Assembly: GCA_017409845.1 (NCBI GenBank)
Contig: JAFQRY010000009.1
Location: 45,715-77,714 of the forward strand
DNA length: 32,000 bases
From: Clostridia bacterium
Lineage (GTDB): Bacteria > Bacillota > Clostridia > Oscillospirales > Acutalibacteraceae
Direction of reading: 5' to 3'
In this document: positions 2,117 to 9,070 of the stretch, in pieces
How positions within the stretch are numbered: the first letter of the stretch is position 1
How the letters are laid out: the number at the start of each line of letters is the position of its first letter
Made by a program: the position numbers and the translations under genes
The notes under the pieces: model-generated
Seen by the model: only the letters and a program-made list of their open reading frames with translations
Told to the model about the DNA's origin: nothing
The model's database searches: none

Positions 2117-2162
2117 GTAAAATACCTCTGCGAAAAAAGAATTGTCTTTTTTCGCAGAGGTA
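2117..2162 (-). terminator. Rho-independent terminator ending the aspS-gatA-gatB operon
   Basis: 16-bp stem acctctgcgaaaaaag / cttttttcgcagaggt (2124-2139 / 2146-2161) just after the gatB stop, followed on the minus strand by TTTT. Confidence 0.75.
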
Positions 2163-2168
2163 TCAATG

Positions 2169-3578
2169 TTATTTATTAAGTTCCTTTTCAAGAAGCTCAC
2201 GGATAACAGCGGGGTCGCCGTTGCCTCTGAGCTCTTTCATAACCGAGCCGAAGAGTGACTGCATTGCTTTGACCTTGCCGCTCTTGTAGTCGGCAACCGC
2301 TTTATCGTTTTCGGCGATAACACGGCGGACTGTGTCAAGAATAAAGCCGTCATCAATCTTTGCGTTGAGGCTGTTTTCTTCACAGTATTTGTCAACATCA
2401 ACATCATCTTCAAATACTGCCGAAAGAACCTTTTTGCCTGCCGCACGGGTGATTTCTCCGCTCTCAACGAGCTCAATGATTCTGCTGAGCTTGTCGGGGC
2501 TGATTTCAAGAGAGGCGAGCTCAAGTCGCTTCATCTGACCCATGCATTCGGTGAGAATCCAGCTTGCAACGGTCTTGGGGCTTCTGCCCGATGCAACAAC
2601 CGCATCAAACATATCCGAAAGCTTTCTGTCGGAAGCGAGAACGGATGCTTCTTTTGCGGCAATGCCCATTTCCTCATAGTAGCCGCTCTTCTCTTCGGAG
2701 GTTGCGGGCATGCTTGCCTTGATTTCTGCAAGCCATTCATCGTCAATAACGATGGGCATGAGGTTGGGGTCGGGGAAATATCTGTAGTCCGCTGCGGTTT
2801 CCTTGTTTCTCATGGGGAAGGTGCGGCGCTTGACATCATCCCAGCGGCGGGTTTCCTGAACAAGCATTTCCGTGTGACGCTCGATTGCATCAACGTGGCG
2901 GACCTTTTCAAACTCGATTGCATCCTTGATTTCGGAGAGCGAGCTCATGTTTTTGATTTCTGAACGGACGCCGAGCTCATCCGAGCCCTCAGGGCGAACG
3001 GAAATATTGACGTCGCATCTCATTGCACCTTCTTCGCATTCGGAAATGCCTGCAAACTGAAGGCTTGATTTAAGCTTCTTGAGATATGCGATAACCTCAT
3101 CCGACGAACGGAAATCGGGTCTGCTGACGATTTCGATAAGAGGAACGCTGGTGCGGTTATAGTCAACGAATGAAGTGTTTGTTGCTTCGTCGTGAACAAG
3201 CTTGCCTGCGTCTTCCTCAACATGAATCTGCTTGATGCCGATTGTTCTGTCGCCAATCTGAACGCTGCCGTCAACGCAGATGGGGTGGAACCACTGAGTT
3301 ATCTGATAAGCACAGGGAAGGTCGGGATAATAATAGCTCTTCTTATCGAAGGTTGTGTACTGGTTGATTTTGCAGTTGAGCATGAAGCCTGCCTTGACTG
3401 CAAGCTCGATTGCGTGTTTGTTGGTTACGGGAAGCATACCGGGCATACCGCTGCAGGCAGGGCATACGCAGTCGTTGGGCTCCTTGGGGCTTGAATGACC
3501 GCCGCAGGAGCAGAAAAGCTTTGAATCGGTGGAAAGTTCAACGTGAGTTTCCAAACCTATAACAAGTTCGTATTTCAT
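2169..3578 (-). CDS. gatB: Asp-tRNA(Asn)/Glu-tRNA(Gln) amidotransferase subunit B
   Basis: 469 aa. N-terminus MKYELVIGLETHVELSTDSKLFCSC plus a YqeY-like tail are classic GatB. Its GGAGGTG RBS lies inside the 3' end of the upstream gatA-like gene, 3 nt from that gene's stop. Confidence 0.95.
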   Translation of the reverse strand: MKYELVIGLETHVELSTDSKLFCSCGGHSSPKEPNDCVCPACSGMPGMLPVTNKHAIELAVKAGFMLNCKINQYTTFDKKSYYYPDLPCAYQITQWFHPICVDGSVQIGDRTIGIKQIHVEEDAGKLVHDEATNTSFVDYNRTSVPLIEIVSRPDFRSSDEVIAYLKKLKSSLQFAGISECEEGAMRCDVNISVRPEGSDELGVRSEIKNMSSLSEIKDAIEFEKVRHVDAIERHTEMLVQETRRWDDVKRRTFPMRNKETAADYRYFPDPNLMPIVIDDEWLAEIKASMPATSEEKSGYYEEMGIAAKEASVLASDRKLSDMFDAVVASGRSPKTVASWILTECMGQMKRLELASLEISPDKLSRIIELVESGEITRAAGKKVLSAVFEDDVDVDKYCEENSLNAKIDDGFILDTVRRVIAENDKAVADYKSGKVKAMQSLFGSVMKELRGNGDPAVIRELLEKELNK

Positions 3579-3581
3579 TAT

Positions 3582-4760
3582 TTACACCTCCACGCTTTTT
3601 GCAATGCTGAGAAGCACGCTTTCTTTATATGAATCGGAAATGAGCTGAACACCCTTTGTTACCATTGCGGGAACGCCCGTGATTGAAGGGATTGCGGTGA
3701 AAAGGCTTTCTTCATAAACCTTTTCAAAAGCATCCGAAGCATCATAGGGAGCGTAGGCTGTCTGTGAGCATGCGGGAGCAAGGATTGCATCATATTCTGC
3801 AAGGATTTCTCTTACCTTATCGCAAACAATGCGGCGGATACGGAGCGATTTATCATAGCATTTTTCGTATTTTGCCTTTGCGAGAACATCCGAACCGTAG
3901 ATGATTGTTGCCTTTGCAAGGAAGCCCATTGATTCGGAGCGGCTCTTTACATAAAGCTCGTCAATGTTTTTGTATTCGGGAGTTCTGTAGCCGTATTTAA
4001 CGCCGTCAAATCTTGAAAGATTGTTGGTGGTTTCGGCTGCCATGAGAATCTGCCATGCGGTCTGTGCCTGAGAAGCAACATCAATTGAAACGGTTTCAAC
4101 CGTTGCACCGATTTTCTTAAGGCTTTCCGCATAAGCATCAATGCTTGCTTTGACTTCTGCACCTGCAGCTTCATAAAGCTCTTTTGCAATGCAGATTTTC
4201 ATTGCGGAAACATCTTCGCTTGTTGAATATTCGTATTTTTCGGCAGGAAGGCTTGTGCCGTCCTTGCTGTCGTGACCTGCAATAACGGTGAGGATTTCCT
4301 TTGCATCCTCTGCGTTTGCTGCGGTAACGCCGATCTGCTCACCCGAGCATGCACAGGCGATAATGCCGTAGCGTGAAACTGTGCCGTAGGTAGGCTTTAT
4401 GAAATCAACGCCCGAAACAGCTGCCGCACGGCGGGGTGCACCGTTGAGGTCAACATTGAGAGCAGCCTTTACTTTGCCCGAGGCAACAAGTGCTGCGGCT
4501 GCACCGACAAGCTTGCCGTTTTCGGTTTCGGGAGCAAAATATGAGGTTTCACCGAGAAGGTCCAGACCGAATTCGCCGACATTTGTTTTGCCTGCGATTT
4601 CATAGTCTGCTTTTTCAAGTCTTTCAACAGCCTCCGCACTGAAAAGGGGCTTGAAATTCTCAAGCATTTTTGAGCCTGCGGTTGCGGGAACGCCTTTAAC
4701 AAGAATTGTATCGTCTGCGGCAATTCTGCCTGCCGCATTAATTTCATTAATATAAATCAT
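3582..4760 (-). CDS. GatA-like amidase-signature protein, shortened, with degenerate catalytic motifs
   Basis: 392 aa against about 485 for typical GatA. Family blocks are retained (KMLENF, KTNVGEF, KPTYGTVSRYG, NNLSRFDGVKYGY). GGSSGGS reads GKLVGAA and DTGGSIR reads DLNGAPR. It occupies the gatA slot between aspS-gatC and gatB. Confidence 0.8.
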   Translation of the reverse strand: MIYINEINAAGRIAADDTILVKGVPATAGSKMLENFKPLFSAEAVERLEKADYEIAGKTNVGEFGLDLLGETSYFAPETENGKLVGAAAALVASGKVKAALNVDLNGAPRRAAAVSGVDFIKPTYGTVSRYGIIACACSGEQIGVTAANAEDAKEILTVIAGHDSKDGTSLPAEKYEYSTSEDVSAMKICIAKELYEAAGAEVKASIDAYAESLKKIGATVETVSIDVASQAQTAWQILMAAETTNNLSRFDGVKYGYRTPEYKNIDELYVKSRSESMGFLAKATIIYGSDVLAKAKYEKCYDKSLRIRRIVCDKVREILAEYDAILAPACSQTAYAPYDASDAFEKVYEESLFTAIPSITGVPAMVTKGVQLISDSYKESVLLSIAKSVEV

Positions 4761-4771
4761 TTATCTGCACC

Positions 4772-6880
4772 TCACTTAACAAGTCTGGGAACCTGCCAGC
4801 TGTCTTCCGTGCTCTGGGGAGCACCTTCAAGCAGGTCTTTGCGGGCAAAGGGCTGATTTCTGCCGTCGTTTCTGAGAACATTTGTCATGGGCATAACATA
4901 AACCATGGCTTCAACATCCGCAGTATCGGTCTTTTCAAGCTTTGCTTCGTTTTTACCCATCATATCAAGGATTTTCTGCATCTTTTTCTTTTCGTCTGCA
5001 TCAAAGCAGAGCTCGTTTACGCTTTCAAGCTCCCTGAGCCAGCCCTCCTTGGTCATTGCACCGCCCTTAGCGGATTTGACGGTTGCGGCAAATGCGGAAT
5101 TATCGCTTTCACTGCCGCCGACCTCAACGCTGCCGCCCTTGCCTCTGATGCTGACATTAGCCTCAAAGAGCTGAAGCTCGGTAACTTCGCCGGGTGCACC
5201 GAGCATCTGATCCTGTGCGGTGCCGTCAAGCGGGAATGCGATAACATCACGGATTGTTTCGGTGTCTGCAAGAAGCATGATGATTCTGTCAACGCCGGGT
5301 GCCATACCTGCATGGGGAGGAGCACCGAACTGGAATGCATTATAGAGTGCACTGAAGCGTCTTTCAACCTCATCCTCGCTGTAGCCTGCAATTTCAAATG
5401 CCTTGCGCATGATTTCGGGGCTGTGGTTTCTTACCGCACCCGAAGCAAGCTCGATGCCGTTACAAACAAGGTCATACTGATATGCAAGAATTTCGCAGGG
5501 ATCCATATTCTCAAGTGCATCAAGACCGCCCTGAGGCATTGAGAACGGATTGTGTGTGAATATAATCTTATCTGTTGTTTCGTCACGCTCATACATGGGG
5601 AAATCAACAACAAAGCAGAATTCAAATGAATCATTCTTTATAAGCTCAAGCTCATTGCCGAGCCATGTGCGGATAACGCCTGCATTCTTATCGGCAACAT
5701 CTGCAATGTTATCGCAGATGAAGAAGATTGTTTCGCCTTCCTTAACGCCTGTGAGCTCAACGATTTCTTTCTTTTCTTCTTCTGTCATAACCTTGCTGAT
5801 GGGGTCATCCTTGAAGCCGTAGTTTGCGGCATCAAGAAGGGTAATATGTGCAAGACCTGCCATCTTTGCCTGCTTTGTTGCGAATGCAAGGGATTTATCA
5901 AAGAACCATCTTTCGTTTTTGCAGGGAGCAACGATTGCTCTGACGAATTTATTCATAAAGGGCTTGAACTGAACCCTCTTGAACATATCGGTAAGGTCGC
6001 AGATGATAAGGGGATTGCGAAGGTCGGGCTTATCCGAGCCGTATTTTGCCATTGCTTCCGCATAAGGAATGCGGCGGAAGGGCGAAGCGGTAACCTTCTT
6101 ATCGGAGAAGGTTCTGAAAATATCGCTTACAACGCTTTCGCAGACCTCAAGGACCTCGTCCTGAGTTGAAAATGCCATTTCAAAGTCGAGCTGATAGAAT
6201 TCGCCGGGTGAACGGTCGGCACGGGCATCCTCGTCTCTGAAGCAGGGAGCAATCTGATAATATTTATCGAAGCCCGAAACCATGAGCAGCTGCTTGAACT
6301 GCTGAGGTGCCTGCGGCAGAGCATAAAACTTGCCGGGATGCTTTCTGCTGGGAACAAGGAAGTCTCTTGCACCCTCGGGAGATGAAGCGGTGAGGATGGG
6401 AGTCTGGATATCAAGGAAGCCTCTTTCTTCCATGAGCTTTCTCATGTGACCGATAACCTTTGAACGAAGAAGAATATTCTTGTGAAGGTCAGGATTTCTC
6501 AGGTCAAGGAATCTGTGCTTGAGGCGGATATTTTCGTTTGTGTCGTTTGAGCCGATTTCAAAGGGAAGGTCACGGCTGCATACACCGAGAACATCGAGCT
6601 TATCGCAAACGAGCTCAACAAGACCTGTTTCGATTTTGGGGTTAACCGTGCTTTCGTCACGCTTGGTTACAACGCCCGAAACAGAAATAACCGTTTCCTT
6701 GCTGATGCCCTTAACGAGATTTTCGTCGTGAACAACAACCTGGGTTACGCCCGTTTCGTCACGCAGGTCAACGAAAAGAACGCCGCCGTGGTCACGGATA
6801 ACGTCAACCCAGCCTGCAAGCTCAACTCTCTGACCGATGTGACTCTCTCTTATTTCGTTACATCTGTGAGTTCTGTACAT
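4772..6880 (-). CDS. aspS: Aspartyl-tRNA synthetase with a C-terminal GatC domain (AspRS-GatC fusion)
   Basis: 702 aa. Bacterial AspRS features run from the OB-fold N-terminus through FRDEDARADR to GAPPHAGMAPGVDRIIMLL...IRDVIAFP, up to about residue 585. A G/S/A linker follows, then a 94-aa GatC-like tail (nt 4775-5056). Confidence 0.9.
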   Translation of the reverse strand: MYRTHRCNEIRESHIGQRVELAGWVDVIRDHGGVLFVDLRDETGVTQVVVHDENLVKGISKETVISVSGVVTKRDESTVNPKIETGLVELVCDKLDVLGVCSRDLPFEIGSNDTNENIRLKHRFLDLRNPDLHKNILLRSKVIGHMRKLMEERGFLDIQTPILTASSPEGARDFLVPSRKHPGKFYALPQAPQQFKQLLMVSGFDKYYQIAPCFRDEDARADRSPGEFYQLDFEMAFSTQDEVLEVCESVVSDIFRTFSDKKVTASPFRRIPYAEAMAKYGSDKPDLRNPLIICDLTDMFKRVQFKPFMNKFVRAIVAPCKNERWFFDKSLAFATKQAKMAGLAHITLLDAANYGFKDDPISKVMTEEEKKEIVELTGVKEGETIFFICDNIADVADKNAGVIRTWLGNELELIKNDSFEFCFVVDFPMYERDETTDKIIFTHNPFSMPQGGLDALENMDPCEILAYQYDLVCNGIELASGAVRNHSPEIMRKAFEIAGYSEDEVERRFSALYNAFQFGAPPHAGMAPGVDRIIMLLADTETIRDVIAFPLDGTAQDQMLGAPGEVTELQLFEANVSIRGKGGSVEVGGSESDNSAFAATVKSAKGGAMTKEGWLRELESVNELCFDADEKKKMQKILDMMGKNEAKLEKTDTADVEAMVYVMPMTNVLRNDGRNQPFARKDLLEGAPQSTEDSWQVPRLVK

Positions 6881-6920
6881 TTTATCATACCTCCGTTTGG
6901 TGGTTTATCTTCTTTACAAT

Positions 6921-6983
6921 TAATAATGAAAAATGAATAATGAATAATGAAAAATTAATGATAGGCTGCGCCTATGACCGATT
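6921..6983 (+). repeat. Interspersed repeat family R1 (AATGAATAAT-rich tract + short hairpin + CCGATT), copy a, inside the aspS 5' UTR
   Basis: taataatgaaaaatgaataatgaataatgaaaaattaatgATAGGCtgcGCCTATgaccgatt matches 22353-22408 (...aataatgaataatgaataattaaggAAGGGCtacGCCCTTgcccgatt). The stem sequence differs between copies but pairing is kept. Confidence 0.6.
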
Positions 6984-6998
6984 TGATATTTTGTAAAA

Positions 6999-7215
6999 AC
7001 AAAAAATCCCGGGAACTTCAGAAATGAAATTCCCGGGACGAGTAATTTAACCCGCGGTGCCACCCGTATTGATACATATAAATATGTATCCGCTTTTAGT
7101 ATTATAATGTGGGGAACCGTTGAAGTGTTGCCGTGCTTACTACTTATCCGAAGTGCACTTTCAGCCCATGATGCACTCTCTCTTTCGGACTTTCCAAAAA
7201 AGCCGAGTCTTCAAA
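6999..7215 (-). promoter_or_regulatory. T-box riboswitch leader of the aspS-gatA-gatB operon (candidate Asn specifier)
   Basis: The minus strand carries the T-box core AATACGGGTGGCACCGCGGG (7049-7070). It is followed by terminator TCCCGGGAAtttcatttctgaagTTCCCGGGA + TTTTTTG (7000-7038). Upstream are an AGAGAG motif and an AGTGCA...TGCACT helix. GGC-AAC-A precedes the helix strand CTTCAA, which pairs with TTGAAG at the 5' end. Confidence 0.85.
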
Positions 7216-7219
7216 TCGC

Positions 7220-7248
7220 ATTATAACAAATTGAAAAAGCCTTGTCAA
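7220..7248 (-). promoter_or_regulatory. Consensus sigma-A promoter driving the T-box leader
   Basis: Minus strand TTGACA (7248-7243), 17 nt spacer, TATAAT (7225-7220). Confidence 0.65.
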
Positions 7249-7335: not shown

Positions 7336-7578
7336 TTATTTTATTTCCTGTTCAAGAGAATTGAATTCATCGGTATCAAAGAACTCTGCAAGAGTGATGC
7401 CGAGACCGTCGCATATTATTTTAATCGTCAGCAGCTTGGGGTTCATGCTTCTGCCGTAAAGGATTGCTTTGAGTGATGAAGGCGGAAGACCGCACATGTT
7501 TGCAAGCCTGTTTATTGTTATATTTCTTTCTCCGCAAAGCTGCAATATGCGGTTTTTAACAGCGGTTACAGTATCCAT
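7336..7578 (-). CDS. XRE-family helix-turn-helix transcriptional regulator
   Basis: 80 aa. ...RILQLCGERNITINRLANMCGLPPSSLKAIL... is a typical HTH_XRE (Cro/C1) fold. Confidence 0.8.
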   Translation of the reverse strand: MDTVTAVKNRILQLCGERNITINRLANMCGLPPSSLKAILYGRSMNPKLLTIKIICDGLGITLAEFFDTDEFNSLEQEIK

Positions 7579-7696: not shown

Positions 7697-7897
7697 ATGA
7701 ATAATTTGAAAAAACTCAGAGCCGAAAAAAATATTTCCCAGGCAGCTTTATGCGAGGAGCTGAAAAAATTCAACTGTTTTATTGAACGCTCGGCATATTC
7801 CAAATTTGAAACAGGGAGCAGAGAAATGGGTGCAGGAATTCTCACGGTATTTGCTGATTATTTCGGCGTAACGGTTGATTATATTCTTGGCAGATAA
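7697..7897 (+). CDS. XRE-family helix-turn-helix transcriptional regulator
   Basis: 66 aa. MNNLKKLRAEKNISQAALCEEL...SAYSKFETGSREM. Divergent from the 7336-7578 gene. Confidence 0.8.
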   Translation: MNNLKKLRAEKNISQAALCEELKKFNCFIERSAYSKFETGSREMGAGILTVFADYFGVTVDYILGR

Positions 7898-7913: not shown

Positions 7914-7942
7914 TTTACAAATTGCCATTATTATATTATAAT
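7914..7942 (+). promoter_or_regulatory. Sigma-A-type promoter for the DUF2804-like gene
   Basis: TTTACA (7914-7919), 17 nt spacer, TATAAT (7937-7942). Confidence 0.5.
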
Positions 7943-7978
7943 ACCATTAATAAAAATATATGCATGGAGGGAATAATA

Positions 7979-9070
7979 ATGACAACCGAAAGAACCTATG
8001 TGCCTTTCAATAAATGGAAGGAAAAATCAAAGCAGATTGAGTATACCGAACCCACTCCTCTGCTTTCACCCGACGGAACTCTTCTTGCAAAGGGCTGGGC
8101 AAGACGCAATGTTTTTGAATATAACCGTGACTATGTAAAATCGGGCATTATGAGCCGCAAGGAATGGGATTTTTATCAGATCTGCAACGGCAAGCTCATG
8201 GTGCAGATAAACTTTGCCAACATCCATGTCGGCGGCTTTGTGGGTGCAAAGATTGTTGATATTGAAAAAGGTGTTACAATTGTTGACACCATTCAGTATT
8301 TCCTCGGCACAAACAAGCATGTTCCTCCCGCAAAGGGCGATGTTCCCAACAGATATAAAGACAAGGTCGGCAAGGCTGAATTCGACTTTGACACCAAAGA
8401 AACCTCAAGAAGACTCTGGTATAAAATGGATTTCAAGGGCACTCCCGTTGAATGTGATTTCACCATGGATATCATGCCGGGTCTTGAAAATATTACAACC
8501 GTTCTTCCTTTTGACGAGAGCGACAAGAAATATTTCATGACAACAAAGCAGATGTGCATGCCCTGCGAAGGAACCTTCAAAGTCGGCGGCGATACATATG
8601 TTTTCTCAAAGGCGGATTCCTTCTGTACTCTCGACTGGGGCAGAACAAACACCGTTCATAAGATGGTATGGTACTGGGGTGCGGGCTCATCATATGTAAA
8701 GGGTCCCGACGGAAAGGATCATCTTTTCGGATTTGAAATCACCTGGGCAATCGGTAACGAATCCAATGCAACCGAAACCTGCCTTTTCTATGACGGAAAA
8801 GCTCATAAATTCGGTGCGGTTGATGTTGAAACCTTCCCGAAGCCCGATAAATATATGGAGCCGTGGAAATTCATTTCAGAGGACGGCAGATTCAACATGA
8901 CCATGAAGCCCTTCTATGATTATCACACCGACCTCGACCTCAAGGTTGGCAGAATGCACACTCATCAGGTTCACGGTCTGTGGAGCGGTGATGTCACACT
9001 CGATGACGGCACAAAGCTCGAAATCAAAGATATGTACGCCTTCTGCGAATATGTTGAAAACAGATGGTAA
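7979..9070 (+). CDS. Conserved hypothetical protein, DUF2804-like
   Basis: Start moved to ATG 7979, which follows GGAGGG by 8 nt; the track start at 7922 lies inside the promoter. MTTERTYVPFNK...PLLSPDGTLLAKGWARRNVFEYNRDYVKSGIMSRKEWDFYQI... resembles the DUF2804 family from memory. The family name is tentative. Confidence 0.6.
   Translation: MTTERTYVPFNKWKEKSKQIEYTEPTPLLSPDGTLLAKGWARRNVFEYNRDYVKSGIMSRKEWDFYQICNGKLMVQINFANIHVGGFVGAKIVDIEKGVTIVDTIQYFLGTNKHVPPAKGDVPNRYKDKVGKAEFDFDTKETSRRLWYKMDFKGTPVECDFTMDIMPGLENITTVLPFDESDKKYFMTTKQMCMPCEGTFKVGGDTYVFSKADSFCTLDWGRTNTVHKMVWYWGAGSSYVKGPDGKDHLFGFEITWAIGNESNATETCLFYDGKAHKFGAVDVETFPKPDKYMEPWKFISEDGRFNMTMKPFYDYHTDLDLKVGRMHTHQVHGLWSGDVTLDDGTKLEIKDMYAFCEYVENRW

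Follow-up and report, generated by a model that had tools for sequence, protein, structure and literature searches.

An aspartyl-tRNA synthetase-GatC fusion encoded with a triad-less GatA homolog in an operon of gut Acutalibacteraceae

Transamidosomes are textbook cases of substrate channelling and guard the genetic code against mischarged tRNA. The asparagine transamidosome of Pseudomonas aeruginosa is a 2:2:2 complex (bioRxiv 10.1101/733030), and transamidosomes of the bacterial type, whose aspartyl-tRNA synthetase (AspRS) contains a GAD domain, are dynamic and weakly stable, with AspRS contacting the amidotransferase GatCAB mainly through the tRNA (PMC3367201; PMC9499178). The pathway of tRNA-dependent asparagine synthesis, the transamidosome concept, and T-box control by tRNA(Asn) are established, and an AspRS-GatC protein architecture is on record for another lineage (NCBIfam NF009460, CDD PRK12820). 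Here we describe an operon of an uncultured ruminant-gut member of the Acutalibacteraceae, located on a 32,000-nucleotide (nt) stretch of contig JAFQRY010000009.1 (hereafter the window) that also covers ~25 kb upstream and ~2 kb downstream of it. The operon, equivalent to four cistrons, consists of a promoter, a T-box(Asn) leader, an aspS::gatC fusion, a gatA-like gene (gatA*, product GatA*), gatB and a terminator. Our best reading, held with moderate confidence, is that it encodes a covalently tethered transamidosome induced by asparagine starvation, in which the amidotransferase does without ammonia made by GatA and uses free ammonia or another donor.

The AspRS-GatC fusion protein

An earlier note on the window had proposed that GatC is fused to the C-terminus of a complete AspRS. 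The minus-strand open reading frame (ORF) at 4772..6880 indeed encodes 702 amino acids (aa) with the linker and tail that the note had quoted. Its AspRS part (residues 1-585; 5126..6880, minus strand, as are all operon features below) is covered over the first 579 residues by NCBIfam aspS NF001750 (743 bits, cut-off 443) and scores 604 bits against TIGR00459. The OB-fold tRNA_anti-codon domain (PF01336, residues 19-96), the class II core tRNA-synt_2 (PF00152, residues 115-551) and the GAD insertion (PF02938, residues 311-397) all exceed their Pfam gathering scores, so that the synthetase is complete up to about residue 585, as the note had stated. A linker (residues 586-608, 5057..5125, GKGGSVEVGGSESDNSAFAATVKSAKGGA), delimited by comparison with unfused relatives, leads into the GatC domain (residues 609-702, with the stop codon 4772..5056).

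The tail is a genuine GatC. Pfam PF02686 (gathering score 23) matches residues 627-695, scoring 32.1 bits when the whole protein is searched and 36.7 bits (E 4.7e-9) with the 94-aa tail by itself. The strict gatC equivalog TIGR00135 is missed (36.8-41.4 bits, cut-off 47.1), and the alignment with the solved GatC structures of S. aureus and Aquifex is weak but colinear. In a search of the tail against 1.84 billion representative proteins, the nearest free-standing GatCs were 93 aa long (P0245, P0248 and others) and up to 57% identical. They align with the tail over its full length, from Met609, its first residue, to its end, so that it corresponds to a whole gatC that was once separate. The same search revealed fragments of divergent fusions, and there were zero full-length fusions among its results, which means that the ratio of fused to free forms is not countable from it; we infer that the fusions are presumably clustered under ordinary AspRS representatives in that set.

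A scan of species-representative genomes yielded 159 relatives, and our counts on the fusion ORF refer to the best 80 of them. These are all Acutalibacteraceae or 'Clostridia' metagenome-assembled genomes from the gut of goat, deer, buffalo, sheep and cattle, and they match residues 1-702 at 80-99% identity. All 80 species-level loci carry an uninterrupted ORF of 698-704 aa, and more than 120 cluster representatives of the full-length protein, from independent assemblies, share 87-98% identity, are 699-703 aa long and all contain the GatC domain. The fusion is therefore no assembly error, and no hidden stop or frameshift of the kind that the note had asked to be checked is present. The fused form is fixed among these 80 relatives; unfused forms occur in other lineages. 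Pairwise Nei-Gojobori dN/dS values, which are rough because dS is saturated, are ~0.07 for AspRS, ~0.36 for the linker, ~0.16 for the GatC domain and ~0.14 for gatA*. Every part of the fusion, along with gatA*, is under purifying selection. Across the 80 species the linker is constant in length within 3 residues and carries a S.F...V.SAK motif.

For the anticodon-binding domain, the top-ranked matches are four solved Asp/Asn ligases (those of M. tuberculosis, M. smegmatis, H. pylori and P. aeruginosa), with which the AspRS moiety shares the RDHGGV.F.DLRD and NP motifs. In public records (P0121/P0008) the fusion is a plain 'aspartate--tRNA ligase' and GatA* a 'hypothetical protein', an annotation gap: both the GatC domain and the link to an amidotransferase are missing from the databases.

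It had also been suggested that some free GatC could be made from an internal ATG at 5056-5054. The ATG and the AAGGGCGG preceding it are present, and 21 of the 23 species (out of 80) with an ATG at residue 609 also have a Shine-Dalgarno-like motif. The other 57 species have K, E, Q, A, V (GTT or GTC, not GTG), S, G, T or I at this residue, and in 55 of them residues 599-620 offer no other start preceded by a ribosome-binding site. As no more than 23 of the 80 species retain the start, free GatC is not a conserved product, and we reject the internal start as a general feature. We take AAGGGCGG and the ATG to be, most plausibly, the fossil of an old gatC ribosome-binding site and start codon, which could conceivably still fire in the window's own sub-clade.

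GatA*, GatB and the leader RNA

The fusion is followed directly by gatA* (3582..4760, 392 aa) and gatB (2169..3578), so the C-A-B gene order described earlier is preserved, and the order fusion, gatA-like gene, gatB recurs in every relative locus long enough to show all three. A tblastn search of the 32-kb window found no further gatC-, gatA- or asparaginase-like sequence. The claim that there is no free-standing gatC thus stands for the window, and for the window only, not as a genome-wide statement.

By phmmer, GatA* matches solved GatAs with an E value of 4e-61 over ~355 residues, from GatA residue 63 on, and is without the ~62 N-terminal residues of GatA. Amidase PF01425 is found at 179 bits; the gatA equivalog TIGR00132 is missed (259 bits, cut-off 481), and its match likewise begins at profile position 63. 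When residues are numbered after the alignment with S. aureus GatA, GatA* carries the substitutions K79D, S154L, S178A, Y309W, R358T and D425S; GGSSGGS has become GKLVGAA at cis-Ser154, and GGSIRQ has become NGAPRR at the nucleophile Ser178. In the same numbering, T175 is L and D211 is E in GatA*, with R200 kept. In S. aureus, Ser178 is the GatA nucleophile (PMC2330236), and Y309, R358 and D425 bind glutamine (bioRxiv 10.1101/733030). We compared GatA* across 72 species that share the window's type of fusion (type 1 below). Position 79 is D in all 72; position 154 is L in 61 and S in none; position 178 is A in 62; and the glutamine ligands are replaced by W at 309 (72/72), T at 358 (71/72) and S at 425 (69/72). 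Loss of the triad extends to nine relatives of other lineages (L085-L089, L093, L094, L101, L122). As a separate observation, Ser is retained at the nucleophile position in L087, L101 and two type-1 species, in which Lys79 and Ser154 are gone.

Homology of GatA* to GatA is clear, yet, to judge from these alignments, the Ser-cisSer-Lys triad and the glutamine-binding residues have been lost. KPTYGTVSRYG, NLSRFDGVKYG, GKTNVGEFGLDL and many other motifs are invariant in the 72 species, and ORF length is kept. The invariant Asp16 (in place of Lys79), Asp67 (for Gly130) and Asn106 (for Gly176) suggest a remodelled and selected pocket and not simple decay. GatA* would thus be a non-catalytic scaffold subunit. 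GatB appears intact: it scores 561 bits against NF004012 (cut-off 338), matches T. maritima GatB at E 1e-114 and keeps the GLETHVEL, HVEEDAGKL and IEIVSRPD motifs. The proposal that the fusion tethers AspRS permanently to the amidotransferase therefore needs amending. A covalent link remains the natural reading of the fusion, but the partner is not a canonical GatCAB, GatA* being triad-less throughout the 72 species, and such a hard-wired complex would be unable to draw on glutamine in the manner of the Thermus complex.

The operon begins with a sigma-70-type promoter at 7220..7248 (TTGACA, 17-nt spacer, TATAAT, with an extended -10 TG; 12/12 consensus match), both hexamers of which are kept across related leaders. 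Rfam reported nothing in the window at gathering thresholds; in E-value mode, RF00230 was found at 7031..7225 (52.3 bits, E 1e-10) with the full model covered. The leader has the features of a T-box: a conserved core, GGGUGGCACCGCG at 7065-7053, kept in 75 of 76 related leaders; a UGGN bulge, here UGGC at 7062-7059 and in 75 of 75 related leaders, which complements a G73-CCA acceptor end (discriminator G); a Stem I specifier with its purine; and mutually exclusive structures, the 5' arm of the terminator overlapping the antiterminator. The terminator scan placed this intrinsic terminator at 7006..7039 (15-bp stem, then a T-run), and the one that closes the operon at 2121..2164 (20-bp stem, then a T-run). 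RNAalifold on 31 diverse leaders found compensatory changes in 15 of 39 predicted pairs. They affect the distal helix of Stem I, Stem III and the terminator, the last of these at alignment columns 265/287 and 270-272/280-282.

The specifier codon is AAC (Asn) at 7129-7127, followed by the purine A7126 and the helix strand CUUC at 7125-7122. All 64 parsable leaders carry the string AAC-A-CUUC on the 3' side of the specifier loop, and the base before it varies. Outgroup leaders carry AAC-G and the clade AAC-A; the conserved unit is therefore 'AAC + purine'. As in the B. subtilis glyQS leader, codon and purine are followed by a CUUC strand whose pairing partner is a GAAG further upstream. A threonine specifier (ACA/ACG) was rejected: the next base is C, not a purine, and the regulated genes point to asparagine. 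Firmicute tRNA(Thr), moreover, presumably has A73 or U73, which the UGGC bulge would leave unpaired. Since the T-box has an asparagine specifier, uncharged tRNA(Asn) would be expected to turn the operon on, by the regulatory logic of the T-box family, and a role dedicated to Asn-tRNA(Asn) is strongly backed by the AAC specifier. The C. acetobutylicum aspS2-gatCAB operon follows the same logic, according to the account of Saad et al. 2012 relayed in PMC4206432.

Several features of the leader and its surroundings stand apart from these points. Between the T-box terminator and the ribosome-binding site of aspS::gatC (6886-6985), the window's leader contains ~75 nt of extra sequence that is gapped in aligned relatives; it is A+T-rich, with TTCATTA repeats and a small hairpin, ATAGGCGCAGCCTAT, at 6975-6961. 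Just upstream of the promoter lie two small, divergently oriented XRE-type helix-turn-helix genes and a DUF2804 gene (7336-7578 on the minus strand, 7697-7897 and 7922-9070 on the plus strand), in the position that an asparaginase-like gene holds in many relatives.

Unfused relatives and an asparaginase-like neighbour

The relatives form a graded series. Two canonical ones (L099 and L112) have a T-box, an aspS of 585-588 aa, a free canonical gatC, a GatA with an intact triad and gatB. Four others (L085, L086, L094, L122) have separate aspS and gatC, the latter in the exact position of the fusion tail, and encode the same short, triad-less GatA*. The T-box(Asn) is present in both unfused and canonical relatives; the leaders of the canonical ones (L099:5631-5863, L112:7291-7524) show an AAC-G specifier, a UGGU bulge and an altered core, GGGUGGUAUCGCG, and the UGGU bulge implies, by base pairing, a tRNA(Asn) with discriminator A or another pairing. 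Fusions are of two types. Type 1 is that of the window's clade, and type 2 (L087, L088, L089, L093, L101) has an unrelated linker (...QQLEDVHLLGNGSALAQR...GKRSTFSNAQQLNQ...) and also a GatA*; a fragment, P0272, possibly represents a third linker type.

AspRS ends with ANISIRE and a stop in L085 and L122 and with ANIRIRD and a stop in L086, at the point where the window continues ANVSIR-GKGG, and the codons of AKGGA-M resemble the ribosome-binding site of the L086 gatC (GAAAGGGAGTGTCAGC-ATG). Given a junction at the ancestral stop and codons resembling a ribosome-binding site, the linker is best explained as the translated former spacer between aspS and gatC. The fusion would accordingly have originated when the aspS stop codon was lost and this short spacer was read through. 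In neighbour-joining trees of GatB and of GatA*, rooted with T. maritima and carrying no support values, the unfused L085 and L086 group with fusion type 1, and type 2 is excluded from that group or forms a trichotomy. Together, the graded series and the trees indicate that GatA degeneration probably preceded the fusions and that fusion arose at least twice. The L085 locus has a 200-nt spacer between aspS and gatC (L085:6800-7000) with a terminator-like hairpin and a TATAAT-like box, so its aspS, behind the T-box, and its gatC-gatA*-gatB may be separate transcription units.

A divergent PF00710 gene for an asparaginase/GatD-like protein is a recurrent neighbour of the operon in relatives, in at least five arrangements (for example L069:4569-5603, minus; L086:4136-5233, minus; L088:3339-4418, plus; L101:6001-7065, plus; L089:6001-7077, plus). 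It lies downstream on the opposite strand in L086 and L087, downstream on the same strand in L088, on the same strand just 70-112 nt past gatB in L101, L104 and L122, convergent with gatB in L094 and L095, and upstream of the T-box, on the operon's strand, in L089-L093, L099, L100, L112 and L063. Among the 72 type-1 loci it is found upstream in 19, divergently transcribed in 18 of them and on the same strand in L063. Of its 16 closest metagenomic homologs (at least 39% identity), 13 adjoin the operon. Neither the window nor the 10 kb downstream in L001 and L002 contains the gene, and it is also missing in the closest relatives, L005-L030. At one type-1 locus (L059:11886-12866, plus), an asparaginase paralog that is less closely related, sharing ~30% identity with the neighbour family, lies 1.2 kb downstream of gatB.

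The encoded proteins score ~95 bits against type I asparaginase (cut-off 260) and ~80 bits against GatD (cut-off 310). They retain the TGGTI and HGTDT threonine motifs, and a profile of the family spans both solved GatD structures full-length, though the GatD N-terminal domain is missing. L099 and L112 have the gene next to an operon with canonical GatA, which means that it did not arise to take the place of GatA; it may, though, be what made the GatA glutaminase dispensable.

A tethered complex, its alternatives and known systems

How might such a complex work? Under asparagine starvation, uncharged tRNA(Asn) would bind the leader through the AAC specifier and pairing of its acceptor end with UGGC, and termination would be prevented. 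The AspRS moiety, probably non-discriminating, would then load Asp onto tRNA(Asn), and the attached GatC would nucleate GatA* and GatB. Both the folding of GatA and its binding to GatB need GatC (PMC2330236). Given this need, and since an N-terminal extension is tolerated in yeast GatF (PMC4027206), each AspRS dimer should bear two GatA*-GatB modules. Mischarged Asp-tRNA(Asn) would pass to GatB without release, and GatB would phosphorylate and then amidate it to Asn-tRNA(Asn). The combination of T-box(Asn), fused GatC and intact GatB indicates Asn-tRNA(Asn) synthesis. The dynamic nature of bacterial-type transamidosomes, with contacts mainly through the tRNA, offers a rationale for a tether, which removes that dependence.

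Because the nucleophile, the cis-Ser, the Lys and both ligands of the glutamine alpha-group are replaced, the ammonia donor must lie elsewhere than in the classical GatA site, with GatA* serving as a scaffold; free NH3/NH4+ seems the most likely source. The rumen and hindgut are rich in ammonia. Given 20 mM NH4Cl, an amidotransferase of this family works with its glutaminase bypassed (PMC4027206), and enzymes of this type are known to accept ammonia in vitro. Another possible source is the synthetase itself: a mycobacterial non-discriminating AspRS with glutaminase activity is the subject of Chew et al. 2020 (FEBS Lett), going by its entry in the reference list of PMC8406222, and if such activity is general, the AspRS moiety could supply ammonia beside the dead GatA.

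Several points weigh against the scheme of a tethered complex fed by free ammonia or another donor. When Tse8, which is inactive on glutamine, replaces GatA in P. aeruginosa, the output of Asn-tRNA is lowered and the effect is toxic (bioRxiv 10.1101/733030); a dead GatA therefore requires real compensation. The picture may change if the genome outside the window encodes another AspRS, an AsnRS, a canonical gatCAB or an asparaginase-like partner. The non-discriminating character of AspRS is probable, with motif similarity and context (T-box(Asn), fused GatC) as its whole basis. The T-box score of 52.3 bits is under the Rfam gathering score of 93, and an AlphaFold2 model of GatA*, built from an alignment of at least 88% identity, had a predicted local distance difference test (pLDDT) score of 33 and was discarded.

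Alternatives differ chiefly in what they make of the dead GatA. The same tethered complex could draw its ammonia from a partner asparaginase/GatD-family amidohydrolase that replaces the GatA glutaminase, as a bacterial analogue of archaeal GatDE, which we regard as possible but unlikely. The neighbour gene's recurrence beside the operon in several arrangements, its closeness behind gatB on the same strand in three loci, its threonine motifs and its full-length fit to GatD all speak for this partner; it is missing, however, from the window and the closest relatives, it also accompanies the operon where GatA is canonical and so did not arise to replace a dead one, and the proteins, without the N-terminal domain of GatD, fall far under the GatD and asparaginase cut-offs. 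Of the Thr-Lys-Asp catalytic set, their Thr motifs are clearly kept while the Lys is doubtful, and the gene may be a mere Asn/Asp-metabolism gene. A canonical GatA or a whole gatCAB elsewhere in the genome might instead be the glutaminase, with GatA* an alternative, regulatory or assembly-only paralog and the complex glutamine-dependent in vivo. Clostridia such as C. acetobutylicum often have several gatCAB copies (Saad et al. 2012, as relayed in PMC4206432), but we think this improbable: GatA* fills the operon's gatA slot in every lineage under purifying selection, the operon's sole GatC is fused to AspRS, so that a foreign GatA must compete with co-translated GatA*, and the clade with dead GatA is old and diverse (~60% identity across lineages).

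That the amidotransferase part is vestigial, leaving a plain AspRS with a leftover tail and a gatA* on its way to becoming a pseudogene, strikes us as very improbable. GatA* does evolve fastest in the operon (62-94% identity, against 80-98% for the fusion), and its label in public records would fit; yet the dN/dS values of GatA* and the GatC domain, the ORF length and invariant motifs kept in 72 species and the intact GatB all oppose decay, and T-box(Asn) control would be senseless for a plain AspRS. Purifying selection and conserved ORFs led us to reject the pseudogene reading of gatA*. An artefact of sequencing or assembly that hides a stop codon or frameshift has a practically negligible chance of being the explanation. 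It is refuted by the comparative data, namely the same ORF in all 80 species and the independent clusters and a second fusion lineage with a different linker, and nothing was found in its favour. A wider scenario appears to us rather doubtful as a whole: a clade of gut Clostridia abandoned the GatA glutaminase, kept GatA as a pseudoenzyme scaffold, obtains ammonia through the operon-linked asparaginase/GatD-like protein or from the gut, and welded its synthetase to GatC in at least two lineages, which would make a natural transamidosome that is one particle and independent of tRNA.

A covalent AspRS-GatC that occurs in nature provides structural and kinetic studies with a stable particle and allows a direct test of the importance of channelling, and its origin at least twice would be evidence of evolution solving the transamidosome stability problem. 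The more surprising point is the loss of the active site in a conserved, selected GatA*. It implies a glutamine-independent route of amide nitrogen into Asn-tRNA(Asn), which, in abundant bacteria of the rumen and hindgut, would couple translation directly to ammonia from the environment or else to a new donor subunit.

Compared with known systems, the closest in architecture is the 'bifunctional aspartyl-tRNA synthetase / Asp/Glu-tRNA amidotransferase subunit C' family NF009460/PRK12820 (~720 aa), in which AspRS is likewise followed by GatC. The window protein scores 434.7 bits against NF009460 (cut-off 1379) and aligns over its AspRS part only (profile positions 26-617 of 723); it appears to be a different fusion of independent origin. 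Our literature searches on AspRS-GatC fusions, including the PRK12820 family, found no paper. The C. acetobutylicum system reportedly has separate genes and a catalytic GatA, unlike the fused AspRS-GatC and triad-less GatA of the window. Both belong to Clostridia and combine a tRNA(Asn)-responsive T-box with AspRS and an amidotransferase for tRNA-dependent asparagine synthesis, as far as the C. acetobutylicum system is described in PMC4206432.

The non-covalent asparagine transamidosomes of T. thermophilus (3KFU), P. aeruginosa (4WJ3) and H. pylori use the same enzymes, presumably with the same channelling of Asp-tRNA(Asn), and those of P. aeruginosa and H. pylori also have a bacterial-type AspRS with GAD; an AspRS dimer with two modules would reproduce the 2:2 protein ratio of the 2:2:2 P. 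aeruginosa complex. These complexes depend on tRNA, whereas here AspRS and GatC form one polypeptide, their association is tRNA-independent, and GatA* is without a glutaminase site. In yeast mitochondrial GatFAB (PMC4027206), which can run on NH4Cl with its glutaminase bypassed, the GatC counterpart GatF has a large N-terminal extension and nevertheless forms a complex with GatA and GatB, but that extension is a scaffolding peptide and no synthetase, and yeast GatA is catalytically active. Archaeal GatDE takes its ammonia from a subunit of the asparaginase family and not of the amidase family, a parallel to the asparaginase/GatD-like gene beside the operon in many relatives; the window has no such gene, the neighbours lack the GatD N-terminal domain, and GatB stands in place of GatE. 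Like GatA*, Tse8 of P. aeruginosa is GatA-like, inactive on glutamine and placed in the GatA position through GatB and GatC (bioRxiv 10.1101/733030); unlike GatA*, a resident, conserved subunit that has lost the triad, it still has the triad and acts as a toxin, poisoning the complex. Covalent links in amidation machinery are also seen in the GlnRS-YqeY of D. radiodurans (PMC1865053) and the gatC-gatA fusion of M. smegmatis (PMC7541841), which join other partners, neither linking a synthetase to an amidotransferase subunit. Set against these systems, what appears to be new is the combination of a recurrent covalent AspRS-GatC, a conserved triad-less GatA across a broad clade and an asparaginase/GatD-like neighbour.

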